From Candidatus Woesearchaeota archaeon UBA489 (GTDB taxonomy: Archaea; Nanobdellota; Nanobdellia; SCGC-AAA011-G17; UBA489), in assembly GCA_002505585.1 (NCBI GenBank), contig DAVM01000021.1, positions 11,660 through 75,659 of the forward strand: a stretch of 64,000 bases of DNA. Direction: 5' to 3'. Shown piece by piece: positions 35,916 to 63,832 of the stretch (position 1 is its first letter; every line of letters starts with the position of its first letter). The position numbers and the translations under genes are program-made. The notes under the pieces are model-generated. The model was not told the origin of the DNA. It did not search any database and worked only from the letters and a program-made list of their open reading frames with translations.

Positions 35916-37442
35916 ATGTCAACCATTCCAAAAGAATTACAAAAAGTAACAGATACAGTATGGGAACTACCAACTTCTTATAAACAAGGAATGAACGTTC
36001 CTGCAAGAATTATAGCAACAAAAAAACTCTTAGATGGAATGGATGCAGGAGTCTTTGATCAAGTAACCAACGTAGCATGTATGCCAGGAATATTGAAGTA
36101 TTCTTATTGTATGCCAGATGCACATTATGGTTATGGAATGCCAGTAGGAGGAGTAGCAGCATTCGACGCAGAAACAGGAATTATTTCACCAGGAGCAGTA
36201 GGCTTTGACATCAATTGTGGTATGAGATTATGTACAACAAACTTAACTTATAAAGAAGTACAACCAAAGTTGAAAGAATTAATCAATACTTTTTTCAAAA
36301 CAGTACCAGCAGGAGTAGGATGTAAAGGATTCTTGAAAGTAAATAATCAACAATTTGATGACATTATAGAAACAGGAGTAAAATGGTGTGTAGACAATGG
36401 ATATGCATGGGAAGATGACTTAAAAAAATGCGAAGGAAAAGGGAAAATAGACTGGGCAGAAGCAGGAAGCATAAGTGACAAAGCAAGGAAAAGAGGAATA
36501 AACCAACTAGGAACCTTAGGATCAGGAAATCATTATTTAGAAGTACAAGTAGCAAAAAAAGAAAATATCTTTGATGCAAAACTAGCAAAACAATTAGGTA
36601 TAGTACTAGATGATCAAGTAGTAGTCATGCTCCACTGTGGAAGCAGAGGATTTGGTCATCAAGTAGCAACAGACTACCTAAAAACCTTCAATGAAGTCAT
36701 GCCCAAATACAACATACAAATAAAAGACAAAGAACTAGCATGCGCACCATTCCAATCAAAAGAAGGACAACATTATTACAAAGCAATGGCATGCGCAGCA
36801 AACATGGCATTCGCAAATAGACAAGTGATATTGCATAGAATAAGAGAAGGATTTAGTAAAGTCTTCGGACAAAGCGCAGAAGACTTAGGAATAAACTTAG
36901 TATATGACGTAGCACATAATGTAGCAAAAGTAGAAGAACACAAAATAGATGGACACAAAAAGAAAGTAGTAGTACACAGAAAAGGAAGCACTAGAGCATT
37001 CCCACCAGGACACCCAGAGTTGATTCCGAAGTATCAAGAAACAGGACAACCAATAATAGTAGGAGGAAGCATGGAAACTGGCAGTGCACTATTAGTAGGG
37101 ACACAAAAAGCAATGGACGAAACCTTTGGAAGCACTTGTCACGGCAGTGGCAGAGTCATGTCCAGAACAAGAGCAAAAAAAGAATTTAGAGGAGAACAAC
37201 TACAAAAAAATATGGAGAAAAAAGGCATTTATGTGAAAGCAGTATCCATGCAAGGACTAGCAGAAGAAGCAGGAGGAGCCTATAAAGAAATAGGAGATGT
37301 ACTAGACGCAGTAGAAAAAGCAGGTATATCAAAACCAGTGACACTACTTCGTCCGATAGGAAATGTGAAAGGTACTGCTAGTATAATGCTAAACTTTCTT
37401 TTAGCAACACTGATTCTTTTATTCTCATTTTTAGTGTTTTAA
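35916..37442 (+). CDS. rtcB: RtcB RNA-splicing ligase (tRNA ligase) with an unusual 22-aa hydrophobic C-terminal extension.
   Basis: Motifs GSGNHYLEVQ, STCHGSGR and FDINCGMR. Ends ...RPIGNVKG followed by TASIMLNFLLATLILLFSFLVF. Confidence 0.9.
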   Translation: MSTIPKELQKVTDTVWELPTSYKQGMNVPARIIATKKLLDGMDAGVFDQVTNVACMPGILKYSYCMPDAHYGYGMPVGGVAAFDAETGIISPGAVGFDINCGMRLCTTNLTYKEVQPKLKELINTFFKTVPAGVGCKGFLKVNNQQFDDIIETGVKWCVDNGYAWEDDLKKCEGKGKIDWAEAGSISDKARKRGINQLGTLGSGNHYLEVQVAKKENIFDAKLAKQLGIVLDDQVVVMLHCGSRGFGHQVATDYLKTFNEVMPKYNIQIKDKELACAPFQSKEGQHYYKAMACAANMAFANRQVILHRIREGFSKVFGQSAEDLGINLVYDVAHNVAKVEEHKIDGHKKKVVVHRKGSTRAFPPGHPELIPKYQETGQPIIVGGSMETGSALLVGTQKAMDETFGSTCHGSGRVMSRTRAKKEFRGEQLQKNMEKKGIYVKAVSMQGLAEEAGGAYKEIGDVLDAVEKAGISKPVTLLRPIGNVKGTASIMLNFLLATLILLFSFLVF

Positions 37443-37465: not shown

Positions 37466-38113
37466 TTATTTTTTATCAATCTGTTTCTTCACTAACTTAA
37501 AGAGTAGATTTAACTTCTCTTTAGGTATATCGAGTTTCATTTTATATTTTAAATGTTCTAAGAAACAACCTAGTTCAAAAAAAGCAGATTCCTTGCCTAA
37601 TTTAAATTGATTTCTAGCTTCTTCAATAATTAAGTCCCAATCTACTCCTTTTAATTCCATTATCCTTCTCACATCATCTTTATCTTTCTGCCTATCAGTA
37701 GCACATTTCATTAAAATGATATCATTATGGTTAGCAACTTTTACAATTAATTTATCTTCAAAGTCTAAAGTTATTTCTGTTCTTCTCTTCATTTCTTTTG
37801 AGAAAATAAAATGTATTACTTCATCAAGGAATAAATCAAATCTTTCATCTTTTAACTTTAACATCTCTGGTTGATTTCTTTTAGTTCCATATACTTGCAC
37901 TGAGTCTATTTTACGATACCCTATATCTTCTGCAGCTTCTTTGAAAATAGCTCTCTCTTCTTTATTTCCAAAAACTAAGTCAATATCTAGAGTAGCATCT
38001 TTAACTCCAAGAAACATCATAGCAGTTCCTCCAATTGCATACACTGTAATTCTTTTTTTTAATCTTCTAGCAATGTTAGCTAATAATAGTTCTTGGTCCT
38101 TTACTGAAATCAT
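37466..38113 (-). CDS. Nucleotidyltransferase-fold protein (AbiEii / DUF1814-like toxin candidate).
   Basis: AIGGTAMMFLGVKDATLDIDLV (GG...DxD). 4-nt ATGA overlap with the upstream wHTH gene. Non-host codon usage. Confidence 0.6.
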   Translation of the reverse strand: MISVKDQELLLANIARRLKKRITVYAIGGTAMMFLGVKDATLDIDLVFGNKEERAIFKEAAEDIGYRKIDSVQVYGTKRNQPEMLKLKDERFDLFLDEVIHFIFSKEMKRRTEITLDFEDKLIVKVANHNDIILMKCATDRQKDKDDVRRIMELKGVDWDLIIEEARNQFKLGKESAFFELGCFLEHLKYKMKLDIPKEKLNLLFKLVKKQIDKK

Positions 38114-38730
38114 TTATAGTCCTCTAAATCTTTATAATTGAAAGGTAGATAAATTCTCCATTTAGTCTCGATAGATTTAAAATCTTTAGATTTCAGTTTA
38201 GGGATAATATAATTAAACTTATACTTTTTTTTAGGCAAAGCTTTGTTTATAAAATGCTTATCTATTCTTCTAGTCTTCATAATTTTCCTTGCTACTTCAT
38301 ACAAAGCACCAACTTGTCTTTCTACATGATTATCTTTAGCTAATTGGTAGAGTAATTTCCAATTGTCTATTTTCTTAAATAAACTTAGTGCAGCAAAAAT
38401 TGTTCTAAAGCTTTTTGTTTTTATGGCGTAAACAAAAGTTTCCTCTAAAGATGGGTTTTTTCTATAAATATAATAATTTTTTGGTATGACTATTTTAGTT
38501 GGAGCATATGTGTTAATTATTTCTTCATATTTAATGCCACCTAACTTATTATCTAAAGAAATATAATAGACTCTCTTGTTATCATTTAATCGTTTAGTTT
38601 TAACATATCCTTTCTTTCTTAATTTGTAGACTTGAAAAATAGCTTTCTTTTTTGGTAGCTTTAATAGAGACATAATAGAATCTATAGTATGGACTCCTTC
38701 AACCTTTTTTAGTAACTCTATTAGTTTCAT
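38110..38730 (-). CDS. Winged-HTH protein (AbiEi-like antitoxin/regulator candidate).
   Basis: N-terminal wHTH-like segment. Paired with the downstream NTase. Duplicated promoter upstream. Confidence 0.5.
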   Translation of the reverse strand: MKLIELLKKVEGVHTIDSIMSLLKLPKKKAIFQVYKLRKKGYVKTKRLNDNKRVYYISLDNKLGGIKYEEIINTYAPTKIVIPKNYYIYRKNPSLEETFVYAIKTKSFRTIFAALSLFKKIDNWKLLYQLAKDNHVERQVGALYEVARKIMKTRRIDKHFINKALPKKKYKFNYIIPKLKSKDFKSIETKWRIYLPFNYKDLEDYK

Positions 38731-38733
38731 TTT

Positions 38734-38837
38734 TAAATGTAGACTTTATATTATATAAACTTTTCTATTTTTTGAGTGAATAATTTAAATGTAGACCTTA
38801 TATTATATAAAACTTTCTATTTTCTGCCAAAACATTT
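38734..38837. repeat. Tandem direct repeat of ~52 bp (two copies, 2 mismatches in the 38-nt core), containing a TATA-like box, upstream of the wHTH-NTase operon.
   Basis: Copy 1 is 38734-38772 taaatgtagactttatattatataaacttttctatttt. Copy 2 is 38786-38823 taaatgtagaccttatattatataaaactttctatttt. Confidence 0.6.
38746..38759 (-). promoter_or_regulatory. TATA box (within copy 1 of the tandem repeat) for the wHTH-NTase operon.
   Basis: ttatattatataaa lies 16-29 nt upstream of the minus-strand start at 38730. Duplicated at 38798-38811. Confidence 0.4.
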
Positions 38838-38927
38838 ATAAACACTCTACCTTTAAATAGAAGTCCAAATACTGAACTAATTAGTCCACAAAGCGGAGAA
38901 AACCCAACAAAAGAGACAATCTAAACA

Positions 38928-39356
38928 ATGAAAAAATACAAATTCTTACCAGACATCGCAGTAGCAGACATAGCATTTGAAGCATACGGCAAAACACTAC
39001 CAGAACTCTTTGTGCATTGTGCAGAAGCAATATTTGTAGAAATGGTAGACTTTACAACAGTAGAAGCAAAAGAAATGAAAGAATTTAGTGTAGAAGGAGA
39101 CACCATAGAACAAGCATTGTATAACTTTTTAGAAGAACTCATTTATTTGAAAGACGTAGAAGTGATGGTGTTTAAAGAATTCAAAGTACAAATAGTAGAA
39201 GGAAAACCAATAAGAGTACATGCAGAAGTTAAAGGAGAAGAAATAAATCAAAAAAAACATAAATTAGGCAACGATGTGAAAGCAGTGACCATGCACCAAT
39301 TTGAAGTGAAAAAAGAAAAAAGGCAATGGGTTGCTAGAATAATAATAGATATATAA
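38928..39356 (+). CDS. Archease (RtcB cofactor).
   Basis: N-terminal FLPDIAVADIAFEAYGKTLPELF and C-terminal KAVTMHQFEV. 142 aa. Confidence 0.8.
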   Translation: MKKYKFLPDIAVADIAFEAYGKTLPELFVHCAEAIFVEMVDFTTVEAKEMKEFSVEGDTIEQALYNFLEELIYLKDVEVMVFKEFKVQIVEGKPIRVHAEVKGEEINQKKHKLGNDVKAVTMHQFEVKKEKRQWVARIIIDI

Positions 39357-62716: not shown

Positions 62717-62902
62717 CTATAGTAAGAAAAGAATATGCTCACCATGTTTTTTAAGACTAACTATATATCTTTGTATTGCATCTTTAATATTTGCAAGAGC
62801 TTCCTCCTTAGTTTTTCCTTCAGAAATACAACCAAGAAAATTTGGGCATTCAACTATGTAAAAATTATCCTCATCTCTTTCCATGATAATCCTATATTTC
62901 AT
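62717..62902 (-). CDS. HicB-family antitoxin-like protein (UPF0150); appears orphaned.
   Basis: YRIIMERDEDNFYIVECPNFLGCISEGKTKEEALANIKDAI matches the HicB N-domain. No intact HicA was found upstream. Confidence 0.7.
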   Translation of the reverse strand: MKYRIIMERDEDNFYIVECPNFLGCISEGKTKEEALANIKDAIQRYIVSLKKHGEHILFLL

Positions 62903-63078: not shown

Positions 63079-63309
63079 ATGGATGTTTCAAAATATGAAG
63101 TTAGAATAACCAAACATGCATTTGATTAAGCACTAAAAAGAGGCATACATCTAGACATGATTGAAGAAACACTCTTAAAAGGACAACTGAAAAAATATGG
63201 GAAGTAAGGAGTGAAACTTGTCAAAAAAGGAACGAAGAAAACAATAATTTGTGTTGGAACAATCATAGGAACAACAATAAAAATATTTACTATAGAAGAA
63301 GGCAACTAA
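63079..63309 (+). pseudogene. DUF4258-like toxin-family gene disrupted by two in-frame TAA stops.
   Basis: A single frame gives MDVSKYEVRITKHAFD, stop, ALKRGIHLDMIEETLLKGQLKKYGK, stop, GVKLVKKGTKKTIICVGTIIGTTIKIFTIEEGN. The stops are at 63127-63129 and 63205-63207. Confidence 0.5.
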
Positions 63310-63311
63310 CA

Positions 63312-63614
63312 ATGAAAAACTGTACACAATGTGAAGGGAAGATGAAAGAACACACAGCAAAAACACCAGAGAACATCTCATATAACTATTATAAATGCCA
63401 AAAATGTGGAGAAGAAATAGTAGCAATGAACCAACTTCATAAAGTAGCAGATAAATACAGAACACTAAAAAGATATCAGGTAAAACTTTCAAAATGGGGG
63501 TTAAGCTTAGGGCTAAGAATACCAAAAGAATTAGTGGAATACTACAAATTAAAAGAAGAGAAAAAAGTTGTGATACTACCAGAAAAGAAAGGAATCAAGA
63601 TTATAACAGAATAA
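63312..63614 (+). CDS. Zn-ribbon plus AbrB/SpoVT-like small protein; antitoxin-like partner of the decayed toxin.
   Basis: CTQCEGKM...CQKCGE Zn-ribbon. C-terminal LSKWGLSLGLRIPKELVEYYKLKEEKKVVIL swapped-hairpin-like. Start lies 3 nt after the pseudogene stop. Confidence 0.5.
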   Translation: MKNCTQCEGKMKEHTAKTPENISYNYYKCQKCGEEIVAMNQLHKVADKYRTLKRYQVKLSKWGLSLGLRIPKELVEYYKLKEEKKVVILPEKKGIKIITE

Positions 63615-63684
63615 AAAAATAGCGCGGGAAGGATTTGAACCTTCGACCTCCGGGTTATGAGCCCGACGGACACTCCTGACTGTC
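63610..63684 (-). tRNA. tRNA-Met (anticodon CAT), initiator-like.
   Basis: On the minus strand: acceptor AGCGCGG / CCGCGCT with A1:U72, D-stem GGAC / GTCC, anticodon stem with three G:C pairs, loop CTCATAA, and T-arm GAAGG-TTCAAAT-CCTTC. Confidence 0.85.
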
Positions 63685-63832
63685 CTACCGCGCTAAGCAA
63701 AATAACACAGTAAGACGTTTTTAAAGGTTTGCAAAAAGAGAAAAACTATCATAACTCAAGAATAGTATACACTTACCAAAACATTTATATGGGGGAAAAC
63801 ACCAAAGAAACTTCAAAGGAGGTGTATGGATT

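Follow-up and report, generated by a model that had tools for sequence, protein, structure and literature searches.

A DUF6036 nucleotidyltransferase and its winged-helix partner in DPANN archaea: a candidate toxin-antitoxin module with a putative paired-box operator

Introduction

In a stretch of 64,000 nt from Candidatus Woesearchaeota archaeon UBA489 (assembly GCA_002505585.1, contig DAVM01000021.1, positions 11,660 to 75,659 of the forward strand; hereafter the window, numbered from its first letter), two overlapping minus-strand genes lie between rtcB and the gene for archease, which raises the question of what this pair encodes and how it came to stand there. The original prediction, made from the sequence alone, took the pair for a mobile defence or addiction cassette resembling AbiEi/AbiEii, composed of a winged helix-turn-helix (wHTH) protein and a nucleotidyltransferase (NTase), that had landed inside a conserved RNA-repair gene pair. 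The reading moderately favoured here is that of a toxin-antitoxin (TA) module of the MenAT/AbiE kind, with an autorepressing antitoxin, built from different protein families. What is new is that an NTase family without prior characterisation is associated with a partner family not described before and with a putative operator of conserved layout. The elements of the pair, called the cassette below, are the following.

38110-38730, minus strand: partner gene (gene 1, wHTH), an open reading frame (ORF) of 206 aa
37466-38113, minus strand: NTase gene (gene 2, DUF6036), an ORF of 215 aa
38110-38113, minus strand: ATGA start/stop overlap of the partner and NTase genes, reading TCAT on the plus strand

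A conserved gene pair

Both minus-strand ORFs may be taken as real genes, because each has hundreds of homologues with E-values of 1e-70 to 1e-100 and of near-fixed length, namely 206 aa for the partner and about 218 aa for the NTase. The homologues of both proteins that carry a taxonomic label belong to Woesearchaeota, Nanoarchaeota and Aenigmarchaeota, all of them DPANN archaea, and the same wHTH-NTase pair is found on hundreds of DPANN contigs. The partner comes first in the operon and the ATG of the NTase gene overlaps the TGA of the partner gene as ATGA, an overlap expected to couple the translation of the two proteins. Such a coupled pair on the minus strand between rtcB and archease is what the original prediction had described, and the ORFs, the Pfam matches and the plus-strand TCAT at 38110-38113 agree with it. 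The junction is an ATGA in 64 of 69 distinct homologous loci. In each of the four genome or run loci inspected first, the partner gene has the NTase gene immediately behind it, and so it does in every locus, among 80 from metagenomes, whose sequence extends to the junction. Since clustering of the flanking ORFs of 48 loci brought out no neighbour family in more than five of them (several of those loci being duplicates), there is no conserved third gene.

The nucleotidyltransferase

The NTase matches the Pfam family DUF6036 (PF19502) with 25.3 bits for a gathering cut-off of 23.6, and all 29 aligned homologues match the same family (best E 6.7e-9, E up to 1). No other Pfam family matches the window protein, and a sequence-profile search of the PDB with it returned nothing. 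Mean column identity in the alignment reaches 76%, and the residues that are invariant among the 29 homologues are G28-G29, K38, T41-x-D43-I-D45, R91, D93, K136, R141, D144 and D147, the sequence around the DxD being T41-L-D43-I-D45. The description of the enzyme as a GG…DxD NTase is thereby borne out, both G28-G29 and D43-x-D45 being invariant. These residues are arranged as follows.

NTase motifs: G28-G29; K38-x-x-T41-x-D43-I-D45; R91-x-D93; K136-x-A-x-x-R141-x-x-D144-x-x-D147

The AlphaFold2 (AF2) model of the NTase has a pLDDT of 93, and its best fold matches in the PDB by Foldseek are structures of the MenT1 toxin (8an5, 8an4 and 8rr5), with a probability of 1.00, E-values of 9e-6 to 4e-4 and template-modelling (TM) scores of 0.47-0.63 (E 9e-6 for 8an5_B; TM 0.58/0.63 for 8an5_A). 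After MenT1, Foldseek ranks ANT(2'')-Ia, JHP933 and TM1012, the matches to ANT(2'')-Ia (4wqk, 5cfu and 5cfs) having E-values of 6e-5 to 2e-4 and TM scores of 0.45-0.56. In MenT1, T39 is the site of auto-phosphorylation, D41xD43 binds metal, and activity requires K137 and D152 (PMC11375011); the AbiEii counterpart of the phospho-acceptor Thr is T65 (bioRxiv 10.64898/2026.01.19.700257). In the window NTase, T41 stands two residues ahead of D43-x-D45, as T39 does in MenT1, this correspondence of residues being one of motif position rather than of residue-level structural superposition. Motifs I-IV are present, with the Ser/Thr phospho-acceptor two residues before DxD that characterises enzymes of the AbiE/MenAT kind, and the active site would fit the MenT/AbiEii type, with this Thr in place and a Lys at nearly the same position.

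The partner protein

The AF2 model of the partner (pLDDT 85.5) divides the protein into three parts.

Partner domains: N-terminal wHTH, residues 1 to about 60; low-confidence linker; all-helical C-terminal domain, residues about 95-206

The partner has 455 homologues, most of them exactly 206 aa long and about 60-65% identical, with a mean column identity of 66% in the alignment, and an exhaustive profile search of 1.84 billion cluster-representative proteins yielded 129 relatives, many of them fragments. Its C-terminal domain has no detectable relatives beyond this small family, and a profile search of the PDB with the partner gave matches to wHTH domains of MarR type only. The partner matches neither the AbiEi models (COG5340; AbiEi_1/3/4) nor the AbiEi structures (6Y8Q and 1ZEL); likewise, it shows no fold match to HEPN, no conserved Rx4-6H motif in the alignments and no similarity to HVO_2833_C, so that it remains without family assignment. 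The partner thus appears as a small self-contained family rather than a branch of AbiEi, and its predicted role is that of an antitoxin and autorepressor. A second 206-aa ORF, encountered in one of the homologous loci (L180), proved to be unrelated to it.

The promoter and putative operator region

The 110 nt upstream of the partner ORF (to 38840) hold a 43-nt direct repeat, at 38732-38774 and 38784-38826, the two copies of which are 91% identical. On the coding strand, each copy contains a BRE-like AGAAA (resembling a TFB-recognition element), the TATA box TTTATATA, 8 nt and the box TCTACATTTAAA.

38731-38769, minus strand: proximal promoter/operator copy, the box of which abuts the partner ATG
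38760-38769, minus strand: proximal BRE-like element, AATAGAAAAG
38752-38759, minus strand: proximal TATA box, TTTATATA
38732-38743, minus strand: proximal box, TCTACATTTAAA, directly at the ATG
38783-38821, minus strand: distal promoter/operator copy, 52 nt upstream of the proximal copy
38784-38795, 38804-38811 and 38812-38821, minus strand: distal box, TATA box and BRE-like element, respectively

This arrangement recurs across the family. In 65 of 69 distinct homologous loci, the TATA box starts 29-31 nt ahead of the start codon; given the geometry of archaeal promoters, so short a distance implies a leaderless transcript, which would apply to the partner-NTase mRNA. The box lying between TATA and ATG has the consensus aCTA[C/G]ATT[A/T]AAc, with the core CTA[C/G]ATT[T/A]AA. 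In 44 of 68 distinct loci, there is a distal box whose score exceeds the 99th percentile of shuffled sequences; among these 44, distal and proximal boxes stand 53 nt apart in 40 loci and 52 or 54 nt apart in the remaining four, and a TATA-like element precedes the distal box in 34. Besides, the two boxes of a same locus are slightly more alike than boxes of different loci, the observed value being reached in 11 of 5000 permutations. The simplest reading is that the two boxes form a two-site operator for the wHTH partner, at a position from which a repressor in archaea would obstruct TBP/TFB or the RNA polymerase, and the distal copy is predicted to serve as both a second binding site and a second promoter. 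This cis-element of paired boxes over a duplicated promoter is new, with an arrangement conserved across loci, and it would provide a directly testable pair of archaeal repressor and operator.

A haloarchaeal parallel

A tblastn search of plasmids with the NTase gave 79 records, nearly all of them haloarchaeal. In the three haloarchaeal plasmid loci examined (L175-L177), a DUF6036 NTase of 270-278 aa follows a wHTH protein with a 4-nt overlap; the haloarchaeal partner family, which occurs on chromosomes too, is typically 308 aa long and carries two wHTH domains and the HVO_2833_C domain (PF24271). The haloarchaeal NTases are 25-28% identical to the DPANN NTase over the full alignment and have the same invariant residues. 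Some of them bear an extra C-terminal wHTH (L176). That the C-terminal domain of the DPANN partner might be a form of HVO_2833_C was rejected by profile-profile comparison (hhalign probability 0.9%), in which the wHTH alone aligned, and the literature search for HVO_2833 returned no paper. Because HVO_2833_C and the C-terminal domain of the DPANN partner show no detectable homology, DUF6036 NTases recur with wHTH partners that differ in their second domain. The toxins of the MenT family, for their part, are known to pair with unrelated antitoxin families (PMC10435456, PMC11375011). In other words, the haloarchaeal system shares with the cassette a DUF6036 NTase encoded after a wHTH gene with a 4-nt overlap, with many copies on plasmids, and differs from it by an NTase longer by about 55 aa and by a 308-aa partner with two wHTH domains.

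Comparison with characterised systems

The search with hidden Markov models (HMMs) that was proposed along with the AbiE resemblance places neither protein in AbiEi or DUF1814/AbiEii. Membership of AbiE was rejected on three grounds: the NTase has no PF08843 (AbiEii/DUF1814) match, the partner matches no AbiEi model or structure, and the AbiE models of PADLOC are silent. Among the 29 members of the NTase family, PF08843 is matched by one, below threshold (E 0.0045), and searches of NCBIfam and PHROGs gave nothing meaningful for the pair. What stands of the resemblance is the two-gene design of TA type together with the fold and catalytic motifs of the NTase (PMC11375011); what falls is the family membership. 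The AbiE label is therefore wrong as a family assignment and right as an analogy.

Regarding this analogy, the cassette shares with AbiE the layout of an antitoxin of about 200 aa with wHTH and C-terminal domain encoded first, then the NTase, in an overlapping operon; it also shares with AbiE the repeated operator sequences in the promoter and the analogous NTase motifs, including the phospho-acceptor Thr (T65 in AbiEii). It differs from AbiE (COG5340/COG2253, as in S. agalactiae and L. lactis, and in archaeal COG2253 systems such as PygAT) in that its proteins fall below the AbiEi and AbiEii HMMs and that the C-terminal domain of the partner has no AbiEi fold match. Whereas the operators of AbiE consist of inverted repeats, the putative operator of the cassette has its repeats in direct orientation, spaced by 52-54 nt across a duplicated promoter. 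DPANN genomes are reported to be enriched in AbiE-type systems (PMC12988326).

The nearest solved structure is that of MenT1 (Rv0078A), the toxin of the MenAT1 system of M. tuberculosis and a protein of similar size (about 190-215 aa). The GG, the [T/S]-x-D-x-D motif, in which Thr occupies the phospho-acceptor position, the Lys of motif III and the C-terminal acidic residues are common to MenAT and the cassette (PMC11375011), as is the upstream position of the antitoxin gene, MenAT antitoxins being drawn from unrelated families (PMC10435456). In contrast, there is no homology to MenAT1 at the sequence level, the cassette NTase belonging to DUF6036 and not to DUF1814 and its host being archaeal, and the antitoxin MenA1 has 68 aa whereas the cassette partner is a wHTH protein of 206 aa. 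As for ANT(2'')-Ia, it shares the two-domain NTase fold of similar size but has no partner protein, acts on a small molecule and has no sequence similarity to the cassette NTase.

Genomic context and base composition

The gene pair flanking the cassette had been described as normally adjacent, which holds for bacteria and a few DPANN relatives; most Woesearchaeota-like loci have genes between rtcB and archease, the gap ranging from 0 to about 5.1 kb and the two genes being adjacent in a handful only. A gene for a ZIP-family metal transporter of about 249 aa, not present in this window, occupies the gap in 22 Woesearchaeota-like loci (within L005-L054), and the other occupants comprise a LAGLIDADG-like ORF, a small pair of MazE/AbrB type, DUF167, YdjM and a phosphorylase. 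The rtcB-archease interval is a variable slot in Woesearchaeota, occupied here by the cassette. The comparison of this spacing among relatives, as the original prediction had proposed, found none with the pair at this position: it is absent from all 80 RtcB loci of species-representative genomes, including every one that also shows archease, and it stands at this site in this lineage only. Elsewhere its contexts vary, mostly among housekeeping genes such as those for eIF5A, FtsZ, PheRS, NDK and SepF in the further loci; rtcB and archease do not flank the closest relative pair either (L173, 78% and 76% identical). The idea of a cassette landed in a conserved gene pair thus keeps its first half, with a site specific to this lineage and varied contexts elsewhere, and loses the second, the interval being a variable slot. 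The position beside rtcB looks incidental.

A 137-kb contig from Tara Oceans matches the window. The cassette is fixed in this marine population, since all contig variants shown that carry the exact archease allele and reach the site have the pair, and an empty site was not found among them. Two attempts at delimiting an insertion led nowhere. The window spacer gave no meaningful alignment, in this AT-rich DNA, with that of L038, the closest relative with adjacent genes (171-nt spacer), and the only candidate among flanking repeats, an inverted pair (37456-37485/38829-38858; 30 nt, 70% complementary), was treated as chance, pairs of this kind numbering 94 in 1.9 kb. No target-site duplication was found around the cassette.

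At third codon positions, the window has a very strong strand asymmetry: its plus strand is rich in A and C whichever way a gene is oriented, and no switch occurs within the 64 kb. The frequency of A at these positions (A3) is about 0.6 and that of T (T3) about 0.17 in plus-strand genes, T3 reaching about 0.55-0.65 in minus-strand genes; expressed as plus-strand AT3 skew, plus genes have 0.47 and minus genes 0.36. The two cassette genes show skews of -0.14 and -0.06 versus 0.43 +/- 0.19 in the other 59 genes, that is the lowest and third-lowest of 61, and a few other genes come close. This is suggestive, albeit not decisive, of a segment not yet equilibrated with the local strand bias, following a recent insertion or inversion. 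The excess of T-ending codons first ascribed to the cassette (0.34-0.37, for a window mean of 0.33) exists relative to its plus-strand neighbours (about 0.15-0.2), but the values lie far below those of the other minus-strand genes (about 0.5-0.65) and near the window mean. Besides, GC at third positions is ordinary, and the low GC of the cassette (0.26-0.28) comes from codon positions 1 and 2 and reflects amino-acid composition. The composition is thus atypical by its AT3 skew, though not in the way first described.

Proposed function and alternative explanations

According to the model that we moderately favour, the winged helix of the partner would bind the two boxes, about five helical turns apart, and repress its own operon, its helical C-terminal domain binding the NTase and keeping it inactive through occlusion of the active site, induced auto-phosphorylation of the invariant T41, or both. 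Upon loss or titration of the partner, the NTase thus set free would add nucleotides to RNA 3' ends, most likely the acceptor ends of tRNAs, so that aminoacylation would be blocked and growth arrested. By analogy with MenT, the NTase is thus predicted to be toxic through its action on RNA 3' ends, probably those of tRNA, and to be possibly gated by phosphorylation of T41. The site between rtcB and archease would have been reached by chance insertion into an intergenic slot of variable content, with no functional link. The appeal of such a link is that toxins of MenT type damage tRNA ends whereas RtcB repairs RNA, but the link is not favoured since the pair adjoins rtcB in this lineage only.

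Several lines of evidence speak for this model. The NTase always follows the partner where the junction is reached, with no conserved third gene. The best structural match is MenT1, and the toxin-type residues are kept in DPANN and haloarchaeal NTases alike. The antitoxin-first bicistronic layout with its ATGA overlap, and an upstream partner composed of a wHTH and a separate C-terminal domain, recall AbiEi and MenA3; two conserved boxes with a fixed spacing of 52-54 nt lie over the promoters, as direct rather than inverted repeats. Contexts that differ in essentially every locus, an atypical wobble composition and the plasmid copies of haloarchaea are mobility-like traits.

A number of observations nonetheless weigh against it. 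The NTase of the window has no match to the PF08843 HMM, and no AbiE or other defence model of PADLOC is matched. The NTase resembles MenT1 in fold to a moderate degree, and ANT(2'')-Ia, which is not a toxin, about equally well; the operator repeats are direct where those of AbiEi are inverted. A full-text literature search for DUF6036 returned no paper. The pair is unusually conserved for a TA module, with fixed lengths and 56-78% identity across DPANN archaea, among housekeeping genes. The identity of the cassette to its relatives (about 60%) lies between those of RtcB (64-75%) and archease (40-68%), so that a long vertical residence of the pair is conceivable. Every contig variant shown with the exact archease allele and reaching the site carries it, and searches of viral contigs, phage records and PHROGs yielded no relatives of the pair.

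From the same facts, a domesticated or housekeeping module of DPANN archaea could be proposed, in which a regulated, non-lethal nucleotidylation of RNA, protein or a small molecule would be controlled by the wHTH protein as dedicated transcription factor or regulatory subunit, inheritance being mainly vertical. This is the main rival of the TA model, though we regard it as rather doubtful. Mean column identities of 76% and 66% for NTase and partner, with fixed lengths, are far above the conservation typical of TA modules; the divergence is comparable to that of core genes, the neighbours are mostly housekeeping genes, the shown variants of the marine population that reach the site all have the pair, and neither viral copies nor, among the clustered neighbours or those with precomputed Pfam labels, mobility genes were noticed. 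Another TA-like NTase module was described by Makarova et al. as unusually conserved and in a housekeeping context in DPANN archaea (PMC6393860). The changing contexts would then reflect the poor synteny of DPANN genomes. Yet the pair has no conserved gene neighbourhood at all, the related rtcB-archease loci all lack it at this position, its wobble composition is atypical, homologous NTases are frequent on haloarchaeal plasmids, and the full set of toxin-type catalytic residues is kept along with the phospho-acceptor Thr.

The roles of the two proteins might also be reversed, the NTase being an antitoxin that nucleotidylates a partner whose helical C-terminal domain is toxic, as minimal NTases do act as antitoxins in HEPN-MNT modules (PMC6393860) and this domain is all-helical. 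We consider this very unlikely: the partner has no conserved Rx4-6H motif, the wHTH protein is encoded first, as is usual for antitoxins or regulators, and the NTase is a two-domain enzyme of 215 aa akin to MenT1 and ANT, not a minimal NTase. Finally, the Foldseek matches to ANT(2'')-Ia, nearly as good as those to MenT1, could point to an antibiotic-type NTase acting on a small molecule and encoded with its own repressor. This is highly improbable, however, given that in 64 of 69 loci the NTase gene is predicted to be translationally coupled to the gene of a conserved partner, and given the lack of any sequence-level match to ANT families, and we know of no obvious value of aminoglycoside resistance for DPANN archaea. 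The Thr phospho-acceptor and the Lys of motif III, moreover, are typical of MenT/AbiEii (PMC11375011).

Significance

Should the MenAT/AbiE-like TA model hold, DUF6036 NTases and their wHTH partners would constitute a third, archaea-centred branch of NTase toxins beside DUF1814/AbiEii-MenT and MNT-HEPN, with at least two unrelated antitoxin designs, one in DPANN archaea and one in haloarchaea. This branch would allow testing whether antitoxin-induced auto-phosphorylation of a Thr near DxD reaches beyond DUF1814, and the module would be one that present-day software for detecting defence and TA systems overlooks in DPANN genomes, where known systems are otherwise scarce. A bolder proposal, which we regard as unlikely, is that the pair is a DPANN-wide growth switch that is selectively retained and not a selfish addiction cassette: a repressor-controlled, phosphorylation-gated NTase acting on tRNA ends would throttle translation, for instance when the cell is detached from its host, and the exceptional conservation would then reflect a physiological role in host-dependent archaea. 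In a weaker variant of this proposal, the position beside the tRNA ligase RtcB and archease would matter functionally in this lineage. In itself, the location of the cassette between these two genes is of little importance and mainly shows that the interval is variable in Woesearchaeota.

Neighbouring genes and additional observations

The two genes that flank the cassette are given for context only; rtcB is convergent with the NTase gene, a spacer of 23 nt separating them, and archease is divergent from the cassette.

35916-37442, plus strand: rtcB (Pfam RtcB PF01139, E 5e-170)
38928-39356, plus strand: archease (Pfam Archease PF01951, E 6e-39)

Upstream of archease (38830-38927), no TATA-like element lies within about 30 nt of the ATG, the nearest being TTTATAAA at 38835-38842, about 86 nt upstream; in L038, by comparison, a TATA-like element is found about 25 nt ahead of the archease start. 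Expression of archease here could rely on a long leader made or left by the cassette.

At its C-terminus (37377-37442), RtcB extends 22 aa beyond the canonical ...GNVKG end as a hydrophobic, transmembrane-like tail, TASIMLNFLLATLILLFSFLVF. Comparable tails (T-x-NLNII-LF...LFVLFL) are seen in L006, L010, L015, L035, L036, L041, L050 and L052, the RtcB of most relatives ending at KG without a tail. The tailed proteins may represent a tail-anchored subgroup in Woesearchaeota, and the tail is older than the cassette. RtcB matches are interrupted by about 1.4-1.7 kb in L035, L043, L046 and L047, with smaller breaks in L034, L036, L038, L044 and L049, which suggests inteins or other insertions within rtcB in several DPANN genomes. 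In L010, L035, L041 and L050, the LAGLIDADG-like ORF stands on the minus strand right behind rtcB.

In the woesearchaeote B3_Woes (L001, 4123-5158), a Polbeta-type minimal NTase (PF18765) and an overlapping 155-aa gene immediately precede the wHTH-DUF6036 pair and could form a second NTase-based TA module. The Rfam scan of the window found two tRNAs and nothing else. Next to the tRNA-Met gene (63619-63695) lies a small TA-like pair (63079-63614), the first gene of which (63079-63309, 76 aa) has two in-frame stop codons and is probably a pseudogene, the second (63312-63614, 100 aa) being intact and MazE/AbrB-like with a Zn-ribbon-like N-terminus. Close by, at 62717-62902 on the minus strand, an ORF of 61 aa resembles a HicB-type antitoxin, as judged by eye from its sequence only, and the whole suggests that TA remnants form a small cluster around the tRNA-Met gene. 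Intact copies of the small MazE/AbrB-like pair stand between rtcB and archease in L015, L023 and L036.

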